From the NCBI GenBank assembly GCA_965249275.1, contig CBDFLQ010000007.1, positions 672,001-736,000 on the forward strand: 64,000 nt of DNA, given 5' to 3'. This document shows positions 2,363 through 57,067 of this stretch, one piece after another (within the stretch, counting starts at the first letter, position 1; each line of letters opens with the position of its first letter). Under the pieces are notes generated by a model. That model did not search any database and was not told the origin of the DNA. It was given only the letters and a program-made list of their open reading frames with translations. A program made the position numbers and the translations under genes. Source of the stretch: Dehalococcoidia bacterium (GTDB lineage Bacteria; Chloroflexota; Dehalococcoidia; Plut-88900).

Positions 2363-5185
2363 ATGATTACCCGCACTGAAAACCTCGCCCGCATCCCAAA
2401 GGTCTACGACCCCACCGAGATCGAAGGCCGAATCTACAAGTTTTGGCTCGATAACGGCTACTTCACCCCAACCATAGAAGAGGGCAAGCAGCCCTTTGTC
2501 ATCATCATGCCGCCGCCCAACGTCACCGGCGAGCTTCACCTCGGCCACGCTCTGACTGCCGCCGCCGAGGACGCTCTCATCCGCTGGCATCGCATGATGG
2601 GCGACCCTACCCTCTGGCTCCCGGGCAGCGACCACGCCGGAATCGCAACTCAGGTCGTAGTCGAAAGACAGCTAGTCAAAGAGGGAAAGGCCCGGCAGGA
2701 AATAGGTCGCGAAGCTTTCGTTGCGAGGGTATGGGAATGGGTACGCCAATACGGTCGCACCATCGCAGAGCAGCACAAGAGACTCGGCGCTTCCTGCGAC
2801 TGGACCCGAGAGCGCTTCACCCTCGACGAAGGCCCCAGCCGCGCCGTACGCACCACTTTCGTCAACCTCTACCGCAAGGGCCTTATATACCGCGGCGAGC
2901 GCATCATCAACTGGTGCCCCCGATGCACGACCGCCCTCTCCGACCTCGAGGTCATCCACCAGGAAGTCGATAGCAATCTCTACTACATCCGCTATCCCCA
3001 CGCCCAGGACCCGACCCGCTACCTCACCGTCGCCACCACCCGTCCCGAGACCCTTCTCGGCGACACCGCTGTCGCCGTCAACCCCGACGACGAACGTTTC
3101 GCCGATTTCGTCGGCCAGAATGTGATCCTCCCCCGTCTAAACCGCCCCATCCCCGTCGTCGCCGACACCGCAGTCGACACAGAGTTCGGCACCGGCGCCG
3201 TCAAAGTAACCCCAGCCCATGATCCCAACGACTTCGATATCGCCCAGCGCCACAACCTTCCCCTAATCACTGTAATCGGGCCCCGGTCTTCAATGACCGA
3301 GGCCGCTGGGCCCCAATACACCGGCTTGACCGTCGCAGAGTGCCGAGCCCGCATCCTCCAGGACCTCGAATCCGATGGTCTGCTCGCAAAGGCCGAACCC
3401 CTCACCCACTCCGTTGGGCACTGCCAGCGCTGCAACACAGTCGTCGAACCTATGGCCGGTAAGCAGTGGTTCGTCAAGGTCGGCCCCATGGCTGAGGCCG
3501 CCGCCGCCGCCGTCACCGAGGGCCGTATCCGCATAGTCCCAGACCGCTTCACCAAGGTCTATTTGAACTGGATGGACAACATCCGAGACTGGTGCATCAG
3601 CCGCCAGCTCTGGTGGGGCCATCGTATCCCCGTCTGGTATTGTGATCGGTGCGAACACCTCACCGTCGCTCTGGATGACCCAACAGCCTGCGAGGGTTGT
3701 GGCTCGACCGATATTCGCCAGGACCCCGACGTCCTGGACACATGGTTCAGCTCCGGCCTCTGGCCCCATTCCACCCTCGGCTGGCCCGACAACACCGACG
3801 ACCTCCGCTATTTCTACCCCGGCGCAGTCCTCGAAACAGGCTACGATATCCTCTTCTTCTGGGTCGCCCGCATGATCATGCTCGGCATCCAGAACATGGG
3901 CGACATACCCTTCCACACTGTATATCTCCACGGCCTCATCCAGGACGAACACGGCGAGAAGATGAGTAAGGTGAAGGGCAACGTACTCAATCCCCTCGAA
4001 ATCATCGACGAGCACGGCGCCGACGCCCTCCGCTTTGCCCTCACCGTCGGCACCGCCCCCGGCAACGACAGCCGGCTCAGCGAGGCCAAGATTCGGTCCA
4101 GCCGCAACTTCACCAACAAGCTCTGGAACGCCTCCCGCTACGTCATCTCCATCCTCGACCAAGCCCCATCATCCCCCCCCGTCATTCCTGCGGAGGCAGG
4201 CCGAAGGTCCGCCGAGGAGGAAATCCATCCCCCCCAACCCTCTACTTTATCATCCCAAGACCAGGCAAATATGTCATTCCGACGCTCCGCGAGGAATCTA
4301 GGACTTGCCCACTCAACTTCCTCATCGCAATCCCCTCCCTCCGATTCCCTCCCCATCGAAGACCGCTGGATCCTGAGCCGCTTCCAACGCACCGTCGAGG
4401 ACGTCACCCGCGCCCTCAACGGCTTCCGTCTCGGCGACGCCCAGGAGTACGTCCACGACTTCATCTGGAACGAGTTCTGCGACTGGTATATCGAAATAGC
4501 CAAGATTCGCCTCCGGGACCTTTCCGACTCCCCCTCCCCCGCCCCCGTCCTGGCTCAGGTCCTCGACGGCGCTCTTCGCCTACTCCACCCCTTCATGCCC
4601 TTCATAACCGAGGAAATCTGGCAAACCCTCGTCCAACGAATGCCCGCATCCGGTGATCAGACCGGCTCCATAATGGTCGCCCCATACCCCACCCCCGACC
4701 CCGCCGCCATCGACTCGGAAGCCGAGGAGTGGGCCGGCCTTCTAATGGCCCTCGTCCGCGGTGTACGCAACGTCCGCGCAGAGCGCAAAGTCGAGGCAAG
4801 TAAGAAAATCCTGGCCGTCCTGTTGGATGGCGAGACCCTTGGACCCGGAGGCCAATCTTTCTTAGAAACCCTCGCCCAATGCTCCGTCGAGGCACACGCC
4901 GGCAACACCTCTCAACCAGAGAACTCCATCATGGTCGTCGAAAAGGCCACCCGAGTCTTCCTCCCCCTCGCCGGCCTCTTCGACTTCGCCGTTGAACGAA
5001 ATCGCCTTGAATCAGCCCTTGGGGAATTGGGCAAGAGGATCGCCCAGATCGAGTCCCGCCTTGAGAACAAGCAATTCCTCTCCAAAGCTCCCCCCGACGT
5101 TGTCGAAAAGGAACGCACCCGCCTCTCCGGCTGGCGAGAAGAGGAAGCCAACTTCCTCCACCGCCTCGGTGAACTGGGTCAATAG
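2363..5185 (+). CDS. valS: Valine--tRNA ligase with an in-frame repeat-derived insertion
   Basis: PPPNVTGELHLGH (HIGH), DWCISRQLWWGH, KMSK, C-terminal coiled coil; extra ~45-50 aa before DRWILSR. Confidence 0.98.
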   Translation: MITRTENLARIPKVYDPTEIEGRIYKFWLDNGYFTPTIEEGKQPFVIIMPPPNVTGELHLGHALTAAAEDALIRWHRMMGDPTLWLPGSDHAGIATQVVVERQLVKEGKARQEIGREAFVARVWEWVRQYGRTIAEQHKRLGASCDWTRERFTLDEGPSRAVRTTFVNLYRKGLIYRGERIINWCPRCTTALSDLEVIHQEVDSNLYYIRYPHAQDPTRYLTVATTRPETLLGDTAVAVNPDDERFADFVGQNVILPRLNRPIPVVADTAVDTEFGTGAVKVTPAHDPNDFDIAQRHNLPLITVIGPRSSMTEAAGPQYTGLTVAECRARILQDLESDGLLAKAEPLTHSVGHCQRCNTVVEPMAGKQWFVKVGPMAEAAAAAVTEGRIRIVPDRFTKVYLNWMDNIRDWCISRQLWWGHRIPVWYCDRCEHLTVALDDPTACEGCGSTDIRQDPDVLDTWFSSGLWPHSTLGWPDNTDDLRYFYPGAVLETGYDILFFWVARMIMLGIQNMGDIPFHTVYLHGLIQDEHGEKMSKVKGNVLNPLEIIDEHGADALRFALTVGTAPGNDSRLSEAKIRSSRNFTNKLWNASRYVISILDQAPSSPPVIPAEAGRRSAEEEIHPPQPSTLSSQDQANMSFRRSARNLGLAHSTSSSQSPPSDSLPIEDRWILSRFQRTVEDVTRALNGFRLGDAQEYVHDFIWNEFCDWYIEIAKIRLRDLSDSPSPAPVLAQVLDGALRLLHPFMPFITEEIWQTLVQRMPASGDQTGSIMVAPYPTPDPAAIDSEAEEWAGLLMALVRGVRNVRAERKVEASKKILAVLLDGETLGPGGQSFLETLAQCSVEAHAGNTSQPENSIMVVEKATRVFLPLAGLFDFAVERNRLESALGELGKRIAQIESRLENKQFLSKAPPDVVEKERTRLSGWREEEANFLHRLGELGQ
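4181..4314. repeat. Composite palindromic repeat inside valS (family A with a nested 21-nt hairpin, plus family B)
   Basis: GTCATTCCTGCGGAGGCAGG[CCGAAGGTCCGCCGAGGAGGA]AATCC at 4181-4226 and TGTCATTCCGACGCTCCGCGAGGAATCTAGGACTTGCCC at 4272-4310; both match intergenic copies. Confidence 0.85.
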
Positions 5186-5202
5186 CAGTCCACCAAGAGA
5201 CC

Positions 5203-5300
5203 GTTATTCCTGCGGAGGCAGGAATCCAGGGGAAGTGTGGGGTTGGGTCCGATCCTCGGGGCGGGGCCGCTCGTGCTGAGGCTCTCGAAGTATGAGCGGG
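5203..5300. repeat. Intergenic REP cluster: family A (5203-5228) and family C (5263-5300)
   Basis: GTTATTCCTGCGGAGGCAGGAATCCA and GGGGCCGCTCGTGCTGAGGCTCTCGAAGTATGAGCGGG; the second is identical to 26623-26660. Confidence 0.85.
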
Positions 5301-5405
5301 GGGCGGAGGAAGGATTAGACAAGCGGCCACTTTGCATAGTATGTCTACTCATCGCAATATGCTTCCACATCAAGACTTGTCCAATGCCCCCATAGGGCAT
5401 AGACC

Positions 5406-10015: not shown

Positions 10016-10181
10016 GGGGCCGCTCACCATGTCGTAGATCCGCCGAGGCGGGAGCTTGCTGCAAGTCCGCTGAGGCGGATCGAAGGGTCGAGCGGGGGCA
10101 CGCACTGCCAATCCGTCACGTACACACAACCCCACCCAACTCTTTGCACATTGTCATTCCGAGGCTCCGCGAGGAATCTAG
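10016..10181. repeat. Composite REP cassette (family C with two nested 21-nt hairpins, spacer, left part of family B)
   Basis: Same order as 52151-52296, including the shared spacer ACTGCCAATCCGTCAC. Confidence 0.8.
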
Positions 10182-11377
10182 GAAACCTCTGAACAAGTCT
10201 AAGTGCATAGGTAATAGGTAAGATAAGGAGAGTAAGGCCAAAGCTGAGGTGAGATTTGATGGAGCAGCCGACATTTGCAGACTTGGAATACGAGGGCAAG
10301 AAGCGAAAGACCCGCCGGGAGATATTTCTGGAGCGGATGGAGGACCTGGTTCCATGGGGAAAGTTAGAGGAGCGAATCCGGCCCTACTATTCCAGGGCGG
10401 GCCGTGGACGGAGGCCCTACGAGTTGTCGGTGATGCTGCGGATACACTGCGTGCAGCTGTTCTACAACCTGAGCGATCCGGGCATGGAGGACATGCTCTA
10501 CGAGGTGGAGTCGGTGAGGCGGTTCGCAGGTCTGAGGCTGTCCGGCCCCTTGCCTGACGAGACTACGATACTGAACTTCCGCCATCTGCTGGAAGAGCAG
10601 GAGTTGGGTCGGGGGCTGTTCGAGGAGATCAACCGTCATCTGGAGTCTCGGGGACTGAGGCTCAGGGAGGGTACGATTGTGGATGCGAGCATCATCGAGG
10701 CGCCGGCGTCTACGAAGAACCGTGCTGGAGAGCGAGACCCCGATATGCACCAGGTGAAGAAGGGGAAGGAGTGGCACTTCGGTATGAAAGTGCACATTGG
10801 TGCAGACGCTGACACGGGGGTGGTGCACAGTATGAGTACGACAGCTGCGAACGTGCATGACATGACGGAGGCGCACCGGCTGCTGCATGGAGGGGAGAGG
10901 CGAGTGTGGGGAGATGCGGAATATCAGGGAGTGGAGAAGCGGGCGGAGAATCGGGATATGGATGTGGAGTGGCGGGTGGCGATGAGACCTGGACGGCGTC
11001 GGAAACTGAGGGCGGGGAGCTGCGAGGCCTTGGCGGAGAAGAGCAAATCATCCATCAGGGCTAAGGTGGAGCATCCGTTCCTGTACGTGAAACGGCACTT
11101 CGGCTACGCCAAGGTCCGCTACAGGGGCTTGTACAAGAACACGCAACGGGTGGCGATGCTGCTGGGGCTGGCCAACTTGGTAAGGGCCGAGCGCCACTTA
11201 GCGGTGTGACGGAGGAGCAGTGTGGTCAAATCCGGGTCGATGGTGACTGGATGCCCTGACAGGCCAGAACATAGGATGCAAATAAGCCACCGAGACGCAA
11301 CATTACGACCCAACCTCTCCCCAAAACTCCATGCAAGACAACCTAAGCTGGTTTACAGTGAGTTGTTCAGAGCTTCC
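10182..11377 (+). mobile_element. IS5-family insertion sequence, 1196 bp, CTAG target duplication
   Basis: Imperfect 15-bp TIRs (GAAACCTCTGAACAA / TTGTTCAGAGCTTCC, 13/15); CTAG at 10178-10181 and 11378-11381; G-rich on + strand unlike the flanks. Confidence 0.93.
10259..11209 (+). CDS. IS5-family DDE transposase
   Basis: PDETTILNFRHLLE, GTIVDAS, WHFGMKVHIG, WGDAEY, RAKVEHPF, RYRGL. Confidence 0.97.
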   Translation: MEQPTFADLEYEGKKRKTRREIFLERMEDLVPWGKLEERIRPYYSRAGRGRRPYELSVMLRIHCVQLFYNLSDPGMEDMLYEVESVRRFAGLRLSGPLPDETTILNFRHLLEEQELGRGLFEEINRHLESRGLRLREGTIVDASIIEAPASTKNRAGERDPDMHQVKKGKEWHFGMKVHIGADADTGVVHSMSTTAANVHDMTEAHRLLHGGERRVWGDAEYQGVEKRAENRDMDVEWRVAMRPGRRRKLRAGSCEALAEKSKSSIRAKVEHPFLYVKRHFGYAKVRYRGLYKNTQRVAMLLGLANLVRAERHLAV

Positions 11378-11384
11378 CTAGGAC

Positions 11385-12113
11385 TTGCCCACTCACCTAC
11401 CGCATTCCCAATCCTCCCCTCTTAACACTCTCCTCCGCCAGGCTCTCGCCGAGCACGCAGACCCCGCGAAGGCCGAGGGCATGAAACGCTACATGAAGTC
11501 GGAGATGCCCTACCGCGGCGTCCAGACGCCCCTGTTGCGCCGACTCTGCAAAGATGTATTTCGCCGCTACCCCATCCCGGACAAGGAAGATTGGCAAGCC
11601 GCGGTGCTGGACTTGTGGAGAAACGCCTCCTATCGCGAGGAACGCTACGCGGCTATAGATCTCGCCGGGGCTAAACGCTACGAACCTTTCCGCACCCTCG
11701 ACACCCAAACCCTTTGCGAGGAGATGATAGTAACAGGCGCCTGGTGGGACTACGTTGACTCCATAGCCTCCCACCGCCTACGAGAGCTACTTGAGAAGTA
11801 CCCCGCCGAGATGTCTCAGGAAATGAGAGCATGGAGCCGTGACCGCGATATGTGGAAGCGCCGCTCTTCAATAATCTGCCAACTCAACCGCAAGTCCCAC
11901 ACCGACCTCGCCCTCCTCTTCGACTGCATCGACCCCAACCTCTCCGACCCCGACTTCTTCATCCGCAAGGGCATCGGCTGGGCCCTTCGCTCTTTGGCCT
12001 GGACGAACCTGGATACGATCGAAGATTACATAGCCCGCAACCGAGACCGTATAAGCCCCCTAAGCCGCCGCGAGGCTTTAAAGAACGCCCAGAAGATTAG
12101 ACATGCCTCTTAA
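11385..12113 (+). CDS. DNA alkylation repair protein (AlkD family)
   Basis: MKRYMKS, REERYAA, WWDYVD, FFIRKGIGWALR, SRREALK; start uncertain (TTG inside a repeat remnant). Confidence 0.85.
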   Translation: MPTHLPHSQSSPLNTLLRQALAEHADPAKAEGMKRYMKSEMPYRGVQTPLLRRLCKDVFRRYPIPDKEDWQAAVLDLWRNASYREERYAAIDLAGAKRYEPFRTLDTQTLCEEMIVTGAWWDYVDSIASHRLRELLEKYPAEMSQEMRAWSRDRDMWKRRSSIICQLNRKSHTDLALLFDCIDPNLSDPDFFIRKGIGWALRSLAWTNLDTIEDYIARNRDRISPLSRREALKNAQKIRHAS

Positions 12114-12159: not shown

Positions 12160-12219
12160 GGGGCCGCTCGTGCTGTCGTAGATCCGCCGAGGCTGGAGGC
12201 TCTCGAAGTATGAGCGGGG
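12160..12219. repeat. Family C REP with one nested 21-nt hairpin
   Basis: CCGCTCGTGCTG[TCGTAGATCCGCCGAGGCTGG]AGGCTCTCGAAGTATGAGCGGG, between convergent genes. Confidence 0.85.
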
Positions 12220-12337
12220 AGGAGGTCATCTGGGTGACACAACAGGTGCGATTTGTAGCTATGCAAGGGTCGCTAAAGGGGAGAGGATGAGGTTGGCTAT
12301 GGCATCAACACCGGCTTGACCCCAAAGCCCCCGACCC

Positions 12338-26459: not shown

Positions 26460-26483
26460 ACCCCCGGCCTCCGACCCCATTCC

Positions 26484-26660
26484 GTCATTCCTGCCCCCGC
26501 AGGAATCCATCCCTCTCAGTTCTTCTTGGGTGACGCCTTTGCCTAACCCTATCGGAGAGCTTGGCGGGCGTCCTACATCCCCTACTGGTCGAGACATTTG
26601 CGTAACCAGTGTTGGAGGGGCGGGGGCCGCTCGTGCTGAGGCTCTCGAAGTATGAGCGGG
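26484..26660. repeat. Intergenic REP cluster: family A (26484-26513) and family C (26623-26660)
   Basis: Same order and motifs as 5203-5300. Confidence 0.8.
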
Positions 26661-26823
26661 GGGGGTTAGGTGATCTGGATAGCACTAAAGATGCAATCTG
26701 AAGTCACAAAAAGGTGCCTTGATGGTGGAGGGCTAGGGGCTAAGACTCGCCGAGGCTAGCGAGGGTGATCCGAGGGTGAGCAATCGGCAAAGCTCACAGT
26801 CTCGCAATGGTCCGTTCATATTA

Positions 26824-26870
26824 GAAATGCAAAGGCCGGATGCTCGATGAGCATCCGGCCTTTGCATTTC
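26824..26870. terminator. Perfect 22-bp hairpin between convergent genes
   Basis: GAAATGCAAAGGCCGGATGCTC-GAT-GAGCATCCGGCCTTTGCATTTC. Confidence 0.7.
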
Positions 26871-37082: not shown

Positions 37083-37249
37083 CCCGCTCGTGCTGTCGCA
37101 GGTGGACCATGCGCCTGTAGAGGATCCGCTTCGGCGGGAACCTGCTGAAAGTGGACCATCCGCCTATGGAGGGTCCGCTTATAGAGGATCGAAGTATGAG
37201 CGGGGGGAGTGGGGCCGCTCGTGCTGAGCCCGTCGAAGTATGAGCGGGG
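37083..37249. repeat. Tandem family C REPs, the first expanded by doubly nested hairpin inserts
   Basis: 37083-37204 is CCCGCTCGTGCTG...TCGAAGTATGAGCGGG with two ~43-nt inserts, each holding a GTGGACCAT..GAGG sub-insert; 37211-37249 is the basic form. Confidence 0.85.
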
Positions 37250-37360
37250 AGGGGTACCGCACCCCATAAATACCAATCGACACCCCTAACCGTGTCATGG
37301 GGTAATGCAGCCACTCCCCGCACCCCATGCTATAATCCAAACCCTAAAAGGGAGGCGGCT

Positions 37361-38341
37361 TTGCCCTACCAACGAGACCTTCTGCCCTCGTTCGCCGGTA
37401 TCAACACCTTCGCCCGTGCCCCGCAGGCCGGATTCGAGGATGTCGGGCCCGGTTGCGTCGCCGTCTTAGGCGTCCCCCACGACGGCTCCTCCACCTCCCG
37501 CCAGGGCGTTAGGCAGGGCCCCCGGGCTATCCGGGAAGCCAGCGCCGACTTCATCTACGAACTCCAGGCCTCCGAGGCTGGTGCCCTCATCGACGTCATA
37601 TCAGGCCGGGTGCTCCACCTCCCCCAACCCTCGACCCTTCTCGACCTCGGAGACCTCACCCTTTCTCCTCTGGACCTTCCCGGCAACCTGGATGCTTGCC
37701 GATCCGCCTTCTCCCGCATCGCCGAAGCCGGTGCCTGCCCCGTCGCCCTCGGCGGCGACCGCTTTATCACATTCCCCCTCCTTGAGGGCGTGAAGGCCGG
37801 ATCGGGCCGCAGCCTCGGCCTGATACGCATCTCCGCTGAACTCTCCCTCGCCGACCCCGATTCCCAATACGGCCCCGATTGGTCCGGCGCTTCTATCCGC
37901 CGCATCCTGGACGCCGGCGGCGTCGAGGCCCGTAACACAGTATTAGTCGGGACCCAGGGCTATATACCCTACCGGGAGTGGGAGTACGCTCGCTCACAGG
38001 GCGTCACCGTAATAACCGCCGACTCAGTGAAAGCCGAGGGCCTCGAGGCAACAGTGCGCCGGGCGTTGGAAATCGCAGGACAGGACTGCGAAGCCGTCTA
38101 CCTCAGCCTCGACATCGGCGTTGTCGACTCCGGCTATGCATCCGGTACCGCCGAAGTTGTAGTCGGTGGCCTTATTCCCCGCGACCTGCTCGCTATCATG
38201 CGCGAGCTTTCCGCATTCCCCAGGGTCGCCGCCCTTGACGTAGTAGAGGTAGCCCCCGGTCTCGACGTCCGAGGACGCTCCGAACGCCTCGCTGCCCAGG
38301 CCATTATCGAACTTATTGCACCCCCCGTTTTCGGGGCGTAA
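37361..38341 (+). CDS. Ureohydrolase (arginase/agmatinase) fold protein A, metal ligands lost
   Basis: TTG after GGAGG and TGCTATAAT extended -10; GPRAIR; GGDR, ISAELS and DIGVVD replace GGDH, DxHxD and DxD. Confidence 0.85.
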   Translation: MPYQRDLLPSFAGINTFARAPQAGFEDVGPGCVAVLGVPHDGSSTSRQGVRQGPRAIREASADFIYELQASEAGALIDVISGRVLHLPQPSTLLDLGDLTLSPLDLPGNLDACRSAFSRIAEAGACPVALGGDRFITFPLLEGVKAGSGRSLGLIRISAELSLADPDSQYGPDWSGASIRRILDAGGVEARNTVLVGTQGYIPYREWEYARSQGVTVITADSVKAEGLEATVRRALEIAGQDCEAVYLSLDIGVVDSGYASGTAEVVVGGLIPRDLLAIMRELSAFPRVAALDVVEVAPGLDVRGRSERLAAQAIIELIAPPVFGA

Positions 38342-38354
38342 CCCCGAGACCCTT

Positions 38355-39338
38355 ATGACCACACAGTCGGCCCCCGTATCCACACCCGGCATTTCCACCT
38401 TCATGGACCTGCCCCGAGGCGACTTGGAGCACCTCAAAGAAGGTATGGCTGCAATCTGCGGCGTCTCCTATGACCTGTCCTGCACTACTAAGATTGGGTC
38501 GAGGTTTGGCCCACGAGCCATCCGGGATAGCTCCGGTTATTACGCCGGCGCATTCTCCCGCTCCGACCTCGTTGAAATCACTACCGGCGACCGCATGAGC
38601 GGCGACCGTCGCTCCCAAATTCTTGACCTCGGCGACTTCAACGCCTACCCCCTCGACTGGCCCCGCACAGAAAAAGAGCTCCGACGCTCCCTCTACGAAG
38701 TGTCCGCCACCGGTGCGACCCCCGTGATTCTCGGTGGCGATCACTTCGTCTCCTATCCCCTATGCCTCGGCTACGCCGACGCCATCCGCGAGCGCACCGG
38801 CCGCGGCATCGGCTACGTCCAACTTTCCAGCCGACTTGATCTCGGCACCCGAGACCCGGTCTGGGGAGACGTATGGCGTGGCGCAACCGCCCGGCGCATC
38901 CTGGACTCTGGGGCCGTTGCCCCGAAGAACATGGTCTGGATTGGCGTTAACGGCTACCTCCGCCGAGAGGAGTGGGACTTCGCCCAGGAAAGAGAGTTGT
39001 CCGTATTCACTCTCGAAGACGTGCGCCGCCGAGGCCTGCAGAACGTGGTCGAAAACGCAATGGAAATTGCAGGAGACGGATGCGACTCCGTCTACGTCAG
39101 CATCGACTTTGATGTGATGGACGGCGGTATCGTCGCCGCCACCTCAGACCCGTGCTTCGACGGCCTCACCAACGTCCAGCTTCTCAAAGCCGTCGACATC
39201 CTCCGCCGAAAGAAGGCCGGGGCCCTGGACCTTGTTGGCATGAATCCCACGGTGAATATGATTTCCGCCACCGGCCCCCGACTCGGGGCATGGATCGTCA
39301 TCCGGTTCCTCGCTGGAGAGGCCCTCGCCTATCCCTAG
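38355..39338 (+). CDS. Ureohydrolase fold protein B, degenerate metal site
   Basis: GGDH and DFDVMD kept; DxHxD replaced by SSRLD; DLVE changed to DLVG. Confidence 0.88.
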   Translation: MTTQSAPVSTPGISTFMDLPRGDLEHLKEGMAAICGVSYDLSCTTKIGSRFGPRAIRDSSGYYAGAFSRSDLVEITTGDRMSGDRRSQILDLGDFNAYPLDWPRTEKELRRSLYEVSATGATPVILGGDHFVSYPLCLGYADAIRERTGRGIGYVQLSSRLDLGTRDPVWGDVWRGATARRILDSGAVAPKNMVWIGVNGYLRREEWDFAQERELSVFTLEDVRRRGLQNVVENAMEIAGDGCDSVYVSIDFDVMDGGIVAATSDPCFDGLTNVQLLKAVDILRRKKAGALDLVGMNPTVNMISATGPRLGAWIVIRFLAGEALAYP

Positions 39339-39352
39339 GCCATGACTTAACT

Positions 39353-40324
39353 ATGCAAAACTACGCGTACACATCGTCCCCCACCTTCATGGGCGCCCCC
39401 CTTGTAGGCCTCTCCGATGTCCAGCCGGGCATGACGGTGATCAGCGGCGCTCCGCATAGCCTCCGAGACCGCTTCGGCGAGAGGTACGGCCCCCGAGGCA
39501 TCCGCGAGCACTCCCTGCCCCTTGCCCAGAGTTTCGACCGCGCCGAAGAGGGTTTGATCGACGTGTCCACCGGGCGCACCCTCATCCGCCCCACCCAATC
39601 CCCCCTCGTAGACGTCGGCGACTTCAACAGTTACCCCTCCGACGTCATGAAAGCCACCGAGGGCATTGCCGGCGGCGTTTCGGAGGTGGTGATGAGGGGC
39701 GGATTCTCCGTCTGCCTGGGCGGCGACCACTACGTCGGTTACCCATCCTGCCTCGGATACACACGGGCCCTAAGCCAAATCAGGCCCAACGCCCGGGTCG
39801 GCTACATCCACATCGACGGCCACCTCGACTTCGCCGACTCCTACGGCCCCTACGGCAAGTACATGAATGGCACCAACGCCCGCCGAATCTCGGAGCTGGA
39901 CGCCATGGAACCCGCCAACATGGTTTTCATAGGCATCCAGGGCCCCTGCTACCTGGACCAGGTCGAGCTCATCCGCCGCTACGGAGGCACGATTTTCACC
40001 AGCGAGGACGTGGAGGAGATGGGCCCCGAGACCGTCGGACGCCGCGCCGCCGAGCTGGCCCTCAAGGGCTGTGACTCTATCTACATGAGCTTCGACATCG
40101 ACGTCATAGACGCCGGCTTCTCTGACGGCACAGGCTCAGTCACTATGGGGGCCATGACGGCATCCACCCTATTCCGCATCCTCGGGCCCCTGTCCGAATA
40201 TCCCATCGGCGCAATGGACCTTGTGGAGACCTCCCCACCCCTCGACGCCGGCAGCCGCACCCCCCGGTTCGCCGCCGAGGCCCTCGTCAAGCTAATCGCT
40301 CCAAGAATATTTGATATCTATTGA
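39353..40324 (+). CDS. Ureohydrolase (agmatinase-like) protein C, intact binuclear site
   Basis: GGDH, DGHLD, DIDVID, DLVE. Confidence 0.9.
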   Translation: MQNYAYTSSPTFMGAPLVGLSDVQPGMTVISGAPHSLRDRFGERYGPRGIREHSLPLAQSFDRAEEGLIDVSTGRTLIRPTQSPLVDVGDFNSYPSDVMKATEGIAGGVSEVVMRGGFSVCLGGDHYVGYPSCLGYTRALSQIRPNARVGYIHIDGHLDFADSYGPYGKYMNGTNARRISELDAMEPANMVFIGIQGPCYLDQVELIRRYGGTIFTSEDVEEMGPETVGRRAAELALKGCDSIYMSFDIDVIDAGFSDGTGSVTMGAMTASTLFRILGPLSEYPIGAMDLVETSPPLDAGSRTPRFAAEALVKLIAPRIFDIY

Positions 40325-40342
40325 GAACACGACCGACTCGGC

Positions 40343-40555
40343 ATGAAGAAGAGCGTAATCACTTGGCCCATGCTCCTGACGGGGTTAGTCCTGTTTTTCA
40401 TCGCGGGAATCGCGTTGTGGTTTCTCCACGACCTCTTCCACGACAGCATAGGCATATCCCTGTTATTGCTGTGGGTGGTGGCGGTCGTGGCATTTTGGGC
40501 TACCGTCCTGCTAATTGTGCTCAAGCTATTCAAGCAGATTTGGCAGAGAGTCTGA
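40343..40555 (+). CDS. Small two-TM membrane protein
   Basis: 70 aa with two hydrophobic stretches and basic termini; fills the gap in the operon. Confidence 0.6.
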   Translation: MKKSVITWPMLLTGLVLFFIAGIALWFLHDLFHDSIGISLLLLWVVAVVAFWATVLLIVLKLFKQIWQRV

Positions 40556-40577
40556 TGCTTAGAGTGACGAGGCCGTA

Positions 40578-41573
40578 ATGCCAATCCGCAGAGGCCCCAC
40601 ACCCAAGACCGGTGGGTTGCTCACCTTCATCGGTGCCCCGACGGGGACTATCGAGGAGCTGACACCCGGCATGTTCGGCGTATTCGGCGTGCCCTACGAT
40701 GTATCCGCCCCCGACCAGCTCGGCCCCCGACTCGCGCCCAAGGCCTATCGGGAAACCTCCACCTACTTCCAGATGATGACCGCCCAGGACGCGACTCTCG
40801 TCGAGATCAACTCCCGCCTTCCAACCGACACCAACCTCGTCCGCGACCGTGTCCGTGACCTGGGTGACCTCCCCGTATCCCACGTCGATTGGGAGATACT
40901 GTCTTTCACCCTTCGGGACGCAGCAAAACGCATCAGCAGCCAGGGCGCCGTGCCCATTGCCCTGGGCGGCGACCACTTCATCGCCTCCGCCTTGGCCCAG
41001 GGCTACCGGAAAGCAACCGGCGGACATATCGGTTATATCCAGCTCTCCAGCCGCCTGGACCTCGGCCTCCGAGACCCCGCTTGGGGAGACGTATGGCGCG
41101 GAGCCACAGTTCGCCGCCTCCTGGACTCGGGGACCGTCCACCCGAAGAACTTGGTATGGATCGGCGCAAACGGCTACATACCGCTCGACCAGTGGCAGAT
41201 TGCAAACAGACTGCCGGCTACTATGATCGACGCAGAGCAAGTCCGCCGCCGCGGCATCCCCAATGTAATAACCGAAGCCCTGGAACGGGCCTCCGACGGC
41301 TGCTCCGGCGTCTTCGTGGGCGTTGACATAGATGTCATGGACGGCGGTTACGTAGCCATGACCGGAACTCCCCGCTTCGACGGCCTCCGAAACGTGGACC
41401 TCTTCGAAGCTCTCACCCTCCTGGCCCGAGGCCCGGTTGGCGGCGTCAGCCTATGTGGCTTAAACCCTCTCATCGAGACCATGAGCCTGGCCAAAACAGG
41501 TCAGCGCTGCGGTGCAGAGATGCTGGTCCGTTTCATCGACGAGAAAATCAGAGTAGCCGAGGCCGCCAAGTGA
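40578..41573 (+). CDS. Ureohydrolase fold protein D, degenerate metal site (paralog of B)
   Basis: GGDH, QLSSRLDLG, WGDVWRGAT and DIDVMDGG match protein B. Confidence 0.88.
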   Translation: MPIRRGPTPKTGGLLTFIGAPTGTIEELTPGMFGVFGVPYDVSAPDQLGPRLAPKAYRETSTYFQMMTAQDATLVEINSRLPTDTNLVRDRVRDLGDLPVSHVDWEILSFTLRDAAKRISSQGAVPIALGGDHFIASALAQGYRKATGGHIGYIQLSSRLDLGLRDPAWGDVWRGATVRRLLDSGTVHPKNLVWIGANGYIPLDQWQIANRLPATMIDAEQVRRRGIPNVITEALERASDGCSGVFVGVDIDVMDGGYVAMTGTPRFDGLRNVDLFEALTLLARGPVGGVSLCGLNPLIETMSLAKTGQRCGAEMLVRFIDEKIRVAEAAK

Positions 41574-42571
41574 GTGAATTGCTGGAACACGTAGAAGACA
41601 TCGGCGCAGCCACCTTCCTTGGCTCGCCCTACGTTGCCCTGGACAAAGTTGAGCGCGGGATGGTCGTCATCGGCGGAGCCCCCCACGACAGCACCCACAC
41701 CAGCCGCTTCGGCACCAGAATGGGCCCCCGAGGCATCAGGGAAGGCTCCCTCGCCATGGCCGACCGCATAAGCAGCGCAGGCCCCGACGGCATCCTTGAA
41801 GTCACATCCGGCAACCGGCTCACCACCCCCGCTTCCAACCGACTCGTAGACGTAGGCGACTACAACGTCTACCCATCCGACGTGATGAAGTCCACCGAGG
41901 GCATAGCCGGTGGAGTGGCAGAGGTGGTGCGTCGGGGCGGCTTTTCCGTCTGCCTGGGCGGCGACCACTACGTCGGCTACCCATCCTGTCTAGGCTACAC
42001 CCGAGCCGTCTCCGAGATGTCTCCGAAACCCAAGATTGGCTACATCCACATCGACGGCCACCTCGACTTCCGAGACGACACCCCCGTCTGGGGCAAGTAC
42101 AACCACGGCACCAACGCCCGCCGCATATCCGAGCTCGACCTCGTCAGCCCTTCCAACATGGTCTGGATCGGCATTCAGGGCTGGTCGGACGAGGAGCCCA
42201 TCAGTGCTATCGACTCCCAGGGAGGCCTCATCTTCACCGCCGCCGACGTTCTAAGGATTGGCCCCGAAGAGGTAGCCCGACGCGCAGGCGAGCGCGCTGC
42301 CGCCGGATGCGACTTCATCTATATGTCCGTCGACATCGACTTTATAGACACTGGCTTCTTCCCAGCCACCGGCTCCGTGGTCAACGACGCCATCACCCCC
42401 GACATCATGGCTACTATCCTTCGCGTCCTCTCTGCCTACCCAATAGGCGCCATGGATCTCGTCGAGGTATCTCCCCGCATCGACCCCTCAGGCCGTTCCA
42501 TGATTATGTCCACCGACCTCCTTCTCGCCCACGTGGCCCCCCGCATCTTCGACATTGCGCCAATGGGCTGA
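41570..42571 (+). CDS. Ureohydrolase (agmatinase-like) protein E, intact site (paralog of C)
   Basis: GTG overlaps the D stop (GTGA); GGDHYVGYPSC, DGHLD, NHGT, DIDFID, DLVEVSP. Confidence 0.9.
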   Translation: MSELLEHVEDIGAATFLGSPYVALDKVERGMVVIGGAPHDSTHTSRFGTRMGPRGIREGSLAMADRISSAGPDGILEVTSGNRLTTPASNRLVDVGDYNVYPSDVMKSTEGIAGGVAEVVRRGGFSVCLGGDHYVGYPSCLGYTRAVSEMSPKPKIGYIHIDGHLDFRDDTPVWGKYNHGTNARRISELDLVSPSNMVWIGIQGWSDEEPISAIDSQGGLIFTAADVLRIGPEEVARRAGERAAAGCDFIYMSVDIDFIDTGFFPATGSVVNDAITPDIMATILRVLSAYPIGAMDLVEVSPRIDPSGRSMIMSTDLLLAHVAPRIFDIAPMG

Positions 42572-48441: not shown

Positions 48442-48465
48442 CTATCTGTGCTGGCCCTCTCCCCC

Positions 48466-48635
48466 GTAGGGGCGGTTCGCGAACCGCCCGATGTCCCGCA
48501 CTGACGCTGCGCGAACCACCCGACTAGCCCCCCGTAGGGGCGGTTCGTGAACCGCCCGACGCCCCACTCTCACCCTGTCTAAGGGTTGTGTGGCGGTGGG
48601 GCCGCTCACCCTGAGGCCCTCGAAGGGTCGAGCGG
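48466..48635. repeat. Two GTAG-type REP palindromes (48466-48489, 48534-48557) plus a family C element (48598-48635)
   Basis: GTAGGGGCGGTTCG(C/T)GAACCGCCC twice; GGGGCCGCTCACCCTGAGGCCCTCGAAGGGTCGAGCGG. Confidence 0.85.
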
Positions 48636-48755
48636 TGGGGGATCGCTTTGTGTTGAGCGTCGCGCGCCTCACCCGCTGACAACGTTCGCAAAATGCCCTC
48701 ATTACTACCCGCAATTCTACACATCTCACCGCCCCCCGACCAAACCATCCCCGGC

Positions 48756-52048: not shown

Positions 52049-52378
52049 TCCGCCTTAGGCGGATCATTCCGGCCGCCGAGAGCCGGTCGAAGATGCTGAA
52101 AGTGCGCCTTTGGCGTGCGCCGAGGCGTGAATCCATCCCCCGGCCGATGGCCCGCTCACCCTGAGCCTGCTGTAAGTCCGCTGAGGCGGATCGAAGGGTC
52201 GAGCGGGGGGCGGCCCCCGACTGCCAATCCGTCACCCCCGCCGTCATCCCAACCAAGCCCCCCTACCCTGTCATTCCGAGGCCCCGCGAGGAATCTGGGG
52301 GGCGGAGTCCTATCCCCTCTCCCTTTGACGGGAGAGGGCTAGAGCCTGCCCCGAGTCCCCCCGAGGGGGTGAGGGTGA
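52049..52378. repeat. REP mosaic: mini-hairpin, family C with nested insert, family B, and a CCCCTCTCCC..GGGAGAGGG..GGGTGAGGG element with an internal insert
   Basis: TCCGCCTTAGGCGGA at 52049; elements at 52151-52207, 52269-52296 and 52315-52378. Confidence 0.8.
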
Positions 52379-55265: not shown

Positions 55266-55338
55266 ACCCCTTGCACATTTGCACCTTAACAACTGAATAG
55301 TGGAAGGAAGCCAATAGCTAGGTAAGAAAAAGATAAAC

Positions 55339-56939
<1,601 letters not shown>

Positions 56940-57067
56940 GGGAGTATTTCTCACACCCACGTGGTGCGGAGACATCTCCTAGGTCGGTCTCTCCGGTTCG
57001 CCGGGGAGCATTTCCTCCCACTGGGAGGACTCGGCTTCCTTTCACTATTAAGTTGTTAAGGCCTTTT

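Follow-up and report, generated by a model that had tools for sequence, protein, structure and literature searches.

Why does the valyl-tRNA synthetase (ValRS) of one Dehalococcoidia bacterium (Chloroflexota) carry 64 residues at a point where this enzyme normally has a short loop? The gene in question, valS, lies in a 64-kb stretch of contig CBDFLQ010000007.1 (positions 672,001–736,000), hereafter the window, and coordinates given below are positions in this window unless a contig is named. The genome under study (G000) comprises 2.9 Mb in 7 contigs (59% G+C, 87% complete) and was compared with eight congeners (G001–G008), giving a genus set of nine genomes. We hold, with a probability of roughly 80%, that the extra ∼49 residues are translated copies of small hairpin repeats that came to lie in frame in the loop linking the catalytic core with the anticodon-binding bundle, where they are passengers. 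These repeats are dispersed and overwhelmingly intergenic, and the slot they occupy in this single-copy essential gene changes content between close relatives. The gene, the loop and the parts of the insert, which include a repetitive extragenic palindrome (REP), are as follows (pLDDT, predicted local distance difference test).

2363–5185, + strand: valS, valyl-tRNA synthetase, 940 aa (open reading frame, translation, Pfam domains, match to 1GAX at E 2e-228)
4157–4348, + strand: repeat-derived junction loop, residues 599–662, ∼49 aa longer than in sister genera and predicted to be disordered (loop comparison, composition, pLDDT)
4180–4227, + strand: family A CGTC-tagged REP split by a 21-nt module, translated VIPAEAGRRSAEEEIH (sequence; un-nested copies at 5202–5228 and 26483–26509)
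4201–4221, + strand: 21-nt module lying within the 3′ stem half of the REP and directly preceding AATCCA (comparison with un-nested copies)
∼4248–4266, + strand: decayed 5′ half of family B, translated within LSSQDQAN (13 of 19 positions match the B consensus)
4273–4315, + strand: full family B element with 3′ extension, translated MSFRRSARNLGLAH (42/43 identical to the commonest genomic form)

The class Ia domain set of the enzyme (catalytic, editing, anticodon-binding and C-terminal coiled-coil) is intact according to Pfam, the 1GAX alignment and a structural model. All Pfam matches were above cut-offs: tRNA-synt_1 at residues 24–572, Anticodon_1 at 667–816 and Val_tRNA-synt_C, the C-terminal tRNA-binding arm, at 874–938. 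This is the sole ValRS gene in G000, the remaining matches in its own genome reaching no more than 50 bits. Between RYVISIL and LPIEDRW, where a first-pass annotation of the DNA had counted ∼63 residues, we find 64, encoded by nt 4157–4348 with the frame open throughout. They include 15 Ser, 9 Pro and 7 Ala, 84% of them are P, S, A, Q, G, E, R, T, N or D, and their mean hydropathy is −1.01 compared with −0.26 for the rest of ValRS.

From 5′ to 3′ the insert consists of a C-rich linker, the REP with its module, the decayed half-B, the full family B element with its extension, and a Ser/Pro-rich tail. Both repeats that the first-pass annotation placed here are present, and their peptides read as it gave them (VIPAEAGRRSAEEEIH from nt 4181–4228, MSFRRSARNLGLAH from nt 4271–4312), but two is too low a count, as there are at least three elements plus the module. 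The family A copy is made up of the head CGTC (4180–4183), the stem halves ATTCCTGC and GCAGG..AAT, the loop GGAG and the tail CCA (4225–4227). Its nested insert is indeed 21 nt long, a multiple of three, and leaves the frame open. By manual count, the half-B is closer to the B consensus at the homologous place in G003 (16/19) and G005 (15/19).

The same elements recur outside the gene, for example at these intergenic sites:

1879–1921, + strand: family B copy with the same 3′ extension as the valS copy (repeat grouping, pattern scan)
5202–5228, + strand: family A copy closely following the valS stop codon, 8-bp stem and 4-nt loop (folded as 5201–5232, ΔG −8.0, z −2.9)
26483–26509, + strand: family A copy (repeat grouping, pattern scan)

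A repeat search of the window grouped 4179–4206 with 5201–5228 and 26482–26509 (repeat family D15), 4251–4302 with 1857–1908, 10131–10182 and 52248–52299 (D5), and 4298–4341 with 11378–11421 (D18); family B copies elsewhere in the window lie at 1879, 10153 and 52270. The matches to intergenic copies reported earlier, at 5203, 26484, 1879 and 52270, were all recovered, and two more were added. Across the 2.9-Mb genome the octamer GTCATTCC occurs 248 times, compared with ∼78 expected from base composition, and 125 of these 248 copies are followed by GGAAT 8–42 nt later. A reversed-pattern control for the CGTC hairpin gave 0 matches in all 41 genomes searched. Given the octamer excess and the empty control, the dispersal of the repeats goes beyond chance.

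Three families matter here. Family A has the head CGTC, an 8–9-bp stem starting with AT, a short loop and the tail CCA; 44 copies in G000 match the pattern with a CGTC head, the CCA tail being present in all 44 by construction, and in a looser scan class A copies show GGAATCCA. Its subfamilies differ at the inner 3–4 stem positions on both sides (TGC/GCA, GGC/GCC, CGA/TCG, CGTG/CACG), and according to the variant list the loop is 4 nt (GGAG) in the valS-type subfamily and 6–8 nt in the commonest others. Family B shares its first eight bases with family A, but its hairpin is weak (z −0.5 to −1.4); its copies often bear the 3′ extension that the valS copy also has. Family G consists of a G+C-rich hairpin of 9 bp with a tail of GGGTGAGGGTGA type after it; it is absent from valS of G000 and present in valS of relatives.

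A strict-pattern census of G000 found 53 copies of family A, 69 of B and 73 of G. Of these 195, 181 are intergenic and 9 lie well inside called genes, which is the genome-wide scan of coding sequences that had been proposed as a check. The intergenic copies of A and B showed no clear departure from the share of intergenic space that is unidirectional, convergent or divergent. At gathering thresholds, Rfam matched only 16S rRNA in the window and offered no family for the repeats. A mismatch-tolerant genome scan (336 AB, 208 H and 73 G instances; 270 candidate open reading frames) was judged too permissive and was set aside in favour of the strict patterns.

ValRS was found in 40 of 41 related genomes, and the comparison bears out the claim that the loop is normally short. 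The stretch from RYV to EDRW spans 22 aa without any repeat in 3/3 sister-genus genomes, compared with 71 aa in G000, and the 66-nt loop of all three is unrelated in sequence to the repeat-bearing loops. Among 80 diverse bacterial ValRS loci, all distant (≤55% identity) and none from the genus, both anchor motifs were found in 52, with a spacing of 21–28 residues (median 24). The nearest named relatives of the G000 enzyme outside the genus set are Dehalococcoidia metagenome-assembled genomes at 53–55% identity. ValRS of T. thermophilus (1GAX) aligns to query residues 11–595 and 660–936 with ∼9 residues of its own between them, compared with 64 in G000. Orthologues free of the repeats have a short loop, not a homologous long one.

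Within the genus, by contrast with its sister genera, repeat-derived sequence fills the valS slot in 9/9 genomes, in at least six different arrangements that include remnants of older copies. The nine loops range from 90 to 213 nt, and all are multiples of three, free of stops and bounded by conserved sequence. The congeners' loops contain:

G003: partial A, A, half-B, B
G005: half-B, B
G007: A (changed on both stem sides), half-B, B
G008 and G001: B only
G004: two different A subfamilies
G002 and G006: a family G hairpin, read as PSPLxGEGQGEGD

Trees of the DNA flanking valS resolve two clades, {G000, G003, (G005, G002)} and {G007, G008, G004, G006} plus G001, and the 5′-flank and 3′-flank trees agree. 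G005 and G002 are sisters (98/100 support) and 95–96% identical in both flanks, yet they have nothing in common in the loop, which holds half-B plus B in the one and a family G hairpin in the other. Loop arrangements do not track the gene tree: both clades contain G-type loops as well as A-plus-B loops. Because these sisters differ and the loop types span both clades, the content of the slot has, as far as the sequences tell, been replaced several times in a genus in which the valS flanks are 80–96% identical. The serial colonisation that the first-pass annotation put forward fits this picture of filled slots, varied arrangements and remnants. Recombination between lineages, considered as the cause of the distribution of loop types, is unsupported for G002 and G005 because the two flank trees agree. 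Upstream of its G hairpin, the G002 loop has a stretch resembling a decayed CGTC REP head (PSVLS, compared with PSVIPA in others), possibly a relic of an earlier occupant of the slot.

The use of this site extends beyond the genus. In G012 and G018, from other families of the class, G-type hairpins sit in the same valS loop and are repeated in their own genomes at 148 and 15 loci, respectively (control, 0–3). A palindrome in the valS loop of G034 was not counted as a repeat insertion, having only 2 loci in that genome. In a 30-sequence alignment the junction loop is the most length-variable region of ValRS. As a separate observation, ValRS matches in G016 (C4:372073–374889) and G037 (C1:1346780–1349596) are split at query residue 432/433 by ∼50 codons, which marks a further site of insertion, this one in the zinc-binding-motif region.

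The insertion is backed by assembled reads from three studies, whose contigs span both junctions and the interval from A to B: 3853–4203, 4185–4299 and 4276–4563 in X1, 4135–4207, 4179–4282 and 4287–4548 in X2, and 4179–4605 in X4. X2 also contains a variant that lacks 4162–4253 and has 24 other letters instead, resembling the A-less form of G005.

An AlphaFold2 model built from the 30-sequence alignment (mean pLDDT 79.6; predicted template modelling score 0.73) predicts helices at 574–600 and 665–686 on either side of the loop and no secondary structure at 601–659, where block pLDDT is 25–39; values fall below 50 at 603–622 and 624–659. With such very low pLDDT, no secondary structure and a polar composition, the insert is best read as a loop, predicted to be disordered, at the junction of the catalytic core and the helical anticodon-binding bundle. 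In ValRS this bundle recognises A35-C36, according to PMC6372641. The earlier description of a tolerant surface loop of the anticodon-binding domain agrees with the predicted disorder and with the length variability, but the loop lies just N-terminal of Pfam Anticodon_1. Because the frame is constant and stops are absent in nine differing loops, the insert is almost certainly translated.

We therefore picture its history along the following lines, though each step is a proposal. Repeats would insert in frame into the loop joining the catalytic core to the anticodon-binding helical bundle, and the enzyme would tolerate the translated insert as a tail-like loop, disordered and exposed at the surface. 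Further copies may arrive by a hairpin-directed process, or by recombination or gene conversion with other copies, and older copies would then be truncated or deleted. The survivors would be only those events that keep the frame and spare the two flanking helices. Most likely, then, the repeats act as passengers and not as a functional part of ValRS, for which the insert is most likely a harmless decoration.

Several observations weigh against this account. The assembly may derive from the sample of one of those three DNA studies. The contigs of RNA run X19 (e.g. 4336–4481) all lie outside the insert. The intragenic count (9/195) rests on home-made gene calls, prepared for this analysis from open reading frames (2360 genes, 83% coding). 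No enzyme able to move the repeats was identified: the Y1/RAYT transposase domain PF01797 was found in 0/9 genus genomes (87–93% complete) compared with 6/14 control genomes, other transposase classes not having been searched. The suggestion that selfish DNA has here generated new peptide sequence stands as regards the repeat origin of the peptide, with translation judged from the frame; because no Y1/RAYT transposase was found, we can only infer the selfish part of it. Lastly, the family B core in valS is better kept between species than a neutral passenger should be. Across six species its mean pairwise identity is 0.865 over 43 nt and 0.93 over the first 27 nt, whereas four-fold degenerate sites of the flanking valS codons show 0.68 for the same 15 species pairs, which are not independent. 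Since the core exceeds these sites, family B in valS is not simply decaying, and gene-conversion homogenisation, recent re-insertion or selection on the DNA or RNA are all possible.

This excess is one reason to ask whether the loop is kept for a function, as a Ser/Pro-rich docking or regulatory arm, or as hairpins that modulate translation, mRNA stability or replication. All nine genomes retain repeat-derived sequence, none having gone back to a short loop. V-I-P-A is the in-frame reading of family A in valS, in dnaE (described below) and in the open reading frame at C6:591740–593146 alike. Such a function would, however, have to be served by content that is not conserved, drawn from three unrelated repeat families in lengths of 90–213 nt. 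The hairpins themselves are poor candidates: folding of the valS A copy is no better than that of shuffled sequence (z −0.03), and that of the B copy is weak (z −1.4). For the peptide, disorder is predicted, at very low model confidence. A loop of 21–28 residues is enough for sister genera and 52 diverse bacteria, and gene conversion with the ∼70 other genomic copies could equally conserve the B core. We regard a functional loop as unlikely, if the most credible of the alternatives.

Far less probable is that the mature protein never contains the insert, its removal or skipping being due to intron-like excision, an intein or translational bypassing. No finding points to this. There would be no reason for 9/9 loops to be multiples of three and stop-free, despite their differing length and content, if they were untranslated. 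The Rfam search, with group I and II introns included, matched nothing in the window except 16S rRNA. Inteins have conserved Cys/Ser-...-His-Asn ends and a size well above 64 aa, whereas this insert is of low complexity, lacks such ends and is far too small. The contigs contain the insert as DNA.

We give slightly less weight still to the proposal that a long loop is ancestral to the ValRS of this lineage and that the intergenic repeats were spun off from valS. Every member of the genus does have a long loop, but the sister genera have a 22-aa loop of unrelated sequence and the intergenic copies lack valS flanks. Members of other families of the class have the CGTC hairpin too, among them G016 (58 copies) and G011, where there are 71 copies but none in the valS loop; PMC3733652 reports CGTC REPs from five other phyla. 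The pattern search of 41 genomes found none of these REPs in G009, G010 and most other class members. A mis-join induced by the repeats in this metagenome-assembled genome, which the high copy number (word depth 9000–15000 over 4265–4295, compared with ∼40–80 beside it) and the 7-contig, 87% complete assembly might invite, is scarcely credible, as separate contigs from three studies bridge the insert and an insert of this kind occupies the same site, in an open frame, in eight congeners, of which six are single-contig genomes.

Besides valS, four conserved genes of G000 hold in-frame repeats:

C5:342510–346328 (locus L039): dnaE, family A CGTC REP read as VIPAEAGIH at aa 1179 of 1273, after the OB fold and ∼87 aa before the stop
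C5:719547–721655 (L045): mnmG, reversed family B element that includes a 21-nt module, within the GIDA domain
C5:647827–649218 (L048): E2 acyltransferase, family G read as PSPSTGEGQGEGD in the lipoyl-E3 linker
C6:859390–862386 (L049): sarcosine-oxidase-alpha-like gene, family G read as PSPQMGEGQGD inside Pyr_redox_2

The dnaE slot is filled in 9/9 genus genomes (relatives L059–L067) by one to several tandem REP copies, with a different, longer insert in G006 and G008, and the mnmG slot is likewise filled in 9/9 (relatives L050–L058). The mnmG matches in G007, G006 and G004 contain one in-frame TAG, possibly in the upstream part of the stop-to-stop query. Thirteen of the 35 strict intragenic candidates were run against Pfam, 6 of which had no family. 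Three candidates with domains only downstream of the repeat (Amidohydro_2, GMC oxidoreductase, LRR) were rejected as intragenic cases because that placement probably puts the repeat upstream of the true start. A putative 488-aa open reading frame without a Pfam family (C6:591743–593206, L042) has a CGTC REP read as VIPAPEPESI at aa 369.

The 21-nt module comes and goes in these genes. In the mnmG element it is present in G000 and G002 and absent from G003 and G005; among the nine genus mnmG slots, only those of G000 and G002 have it. In the dnaE REP it is present in G005, G002 and G004 and absent from G000, G003 and G001. The same kind of module occupies the same position in 7 other CGTC REPs of G000, which are intergenic units, and in the mnmG copy of family B. 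Because REP-plus-module composites exist as units elsewhere, valS need not be where the nesting took place. Its own composite is 50/51 identical to the dnaE copy of G005 and 49/51 to that of G002, and has 6 differences from the nearest intergenic composite of G000. Allowing up to 3 mismatches, this 51-nt variant occurs once each in G000 (valS), G002 (dnaE) and G005 (dnaE), and not in G003 or G004. As a tentative suggestion, which we think more doubtful than not, the module could be a very small mobile element, moving in and out of REP-type hairpins at one set point, the base of the 3′ stem, and hopping between REPs in essential genes; the genus would then keep permanent REP slots in valS, dnaE and mnmG, overwritten by copy-to-copy conversion or by a hairpin-specific enzyme without RAYT.

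Further repeats and genes of the window lie outside this argument. Another repeat family, with the outer stem CCGCTC...GAGCGG, occurs at 5254–5308, 10016–10098, 12160–12226, 26614–26668, 37189–37256, 48589–48643 and 52150–52209; its longer forms enclose one or two units resembling the 21-nt module, which suggests a general hairpin-within-hairpin architecture in G000. Two tandem 49-nt copies, 86% alike, at 48461–48509 and 48529–48577 contain a palindrome of GGGGCGGTTCG/CGAACCGCCC type and belong to yet another repeat family. A perfect 22-nt inverted repeat with a 3-nt spacer at 26824–26870 is terminator-like. Five tandem paralogues of the arginase/agmatinase family (PF00491, E 3e-39 to 5e-58) are spaced ∼1 kb apart at 37292–42571. 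The 16S rRNA gene lies at 55339–56936 (Rfam RF00177, 1512 bits), flanked by a pair of 29-nt inverted repeats at 55284–55312 and 57033–57061.

These results add Dehalococcoidia (Chloroflexota) to the groups with REP-type hairpins inside working, essential proteins. The genus offers a clean natural experiment, with nine close genomes, six of them closed, and fixed slots in three essential genes whose content varies by species. It opens questions about CGTC REPs to comparison, namely how they spread without a known transposase and whether gene conversion homogenises them. For annotation, low-complexity stretches such as VIPAEAGIH, MSFRGSARNLG and PSPLxGEGQGEG in conserved enzymes from these organisms should be taken as repeat-derived and not as domain features.

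How do these repeats compare with known systems? GTAG REPs and REPINs are mobilised by RAYT proteins, which are Y1 transposases of the IS200/IS605 type. Our repeats are like them in being short hairpins with an unpaired tetranucleotide tag, present in high copy and mostly extragenic, but their tag is CGTC rather than GTAG and PF01797 was matched in none of the nine genus genomes. Miniature inverted-repeat transposable elements, which PMC10969869 describes as non-autonomous transposons bounded by terminal inverted repeats, are likewise small, non-coding and dispersed and can fuse in frame with host open reading frames. In the present repeats, inspection by eye revealed neither terminal inverted repeats apart from the hairpin itself nor, in the C-rich, ambiguous flanks, a target-site duplication that could be recognised.

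The first-pass annotation had named the Rickettsia palindromic elements (RPEs) as the analogue. In the summary of Ogata et al. 2000 given in PMC10969869, these are ∼150 bp long, each encodes a conserved peptide, and the host is an obligate intracellular alphaproteobacterium. The likeness is that palindromic repeats lie in frame in unrelated housekeeping genes and supply extra peptide where the fold permits. The G000 units, however, are 27–51 nt long, belong to a Dehalococcoidia host, and are stacked and exchanged within one slot. By analogy the valS insertion is RPE-like in behaviour, yet we do not class it as an RPE, since its units are 27–51 nt and not peptide-encoding palindromes of ∼100–150 bp. 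The analogy thus stands for the in-frame behaviour, whereas the closest published analogue is the superfamily of CGTC-tagged REPs, which includes RPE-4 and RPE-6.

That superfamily is described by Di Nocera, De Gregorio and Rocco (2013, BMC Genomics 14:522, PMC3733652) as having an unpaired CGTC, an 8–9-bp stem whose first two pairs are A-T, a 4–5-nt loop and a CCA-type tail, with no dedicated transposase. The same authors list it in Proteobacteria, Chlorobi, Bacteroidetes, Spirochaetes and Thermotogae, Chloroflexi not being among them. They also report intragenic GTAG or CGTC REPs in tRNA synthetase genes of X. oryzae, E. litoralis and S. alaskensis, an intragenic REP in dnaE of R. conorii, repeat clusters encoding 43–82 aa, and two Xanthomonas species with differing REPs at nearly the same point of recB. 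Family A agrees in its CGTC head, 8-bp stem starting with AT, CCA tail and dispersed, mostly intergenic distribution, and the genus genomes with the valS-type REP likewise have no PF01797 match. The canonical copy at 5201–5232 has the stem described for the superfamily, whereas that of the valS copy is split by the module and unfolded. In loop size family A is mixed: compared with the published 4–5 nt, the valS-type subfamily has 4 nt and several other G000 subfamilies have 6–8 nt. The valS cluster differs further in mixing a REP with family B (family G in relatives) and a nested 21-nt module, and the slot differs in being filled in 9/9 genus genomes with differing content.

A full-text search for literature on repetitive extragenic palindromes in Dehalococcoidia found none, and among papers from 2013 on dealing with intragenic CGTC or palindromic REPs, judged by titles and the starts of abstracts, only PMC3733652 concerns bacterial REPs. 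In-frame REPs are thus already known, tRNA synthetase genes included, and valS may be among the hosts reported in that paper. As far as published accounts were compared, PMC3733652 in part, three features of the present genus go beyond them: slots in several genes that are shared across the genus and turn over rapidly, a 21-nt module whose presence varies among orthologous intragenic REPs, and a unique composite found in dnaE of two species and in valS of a third.

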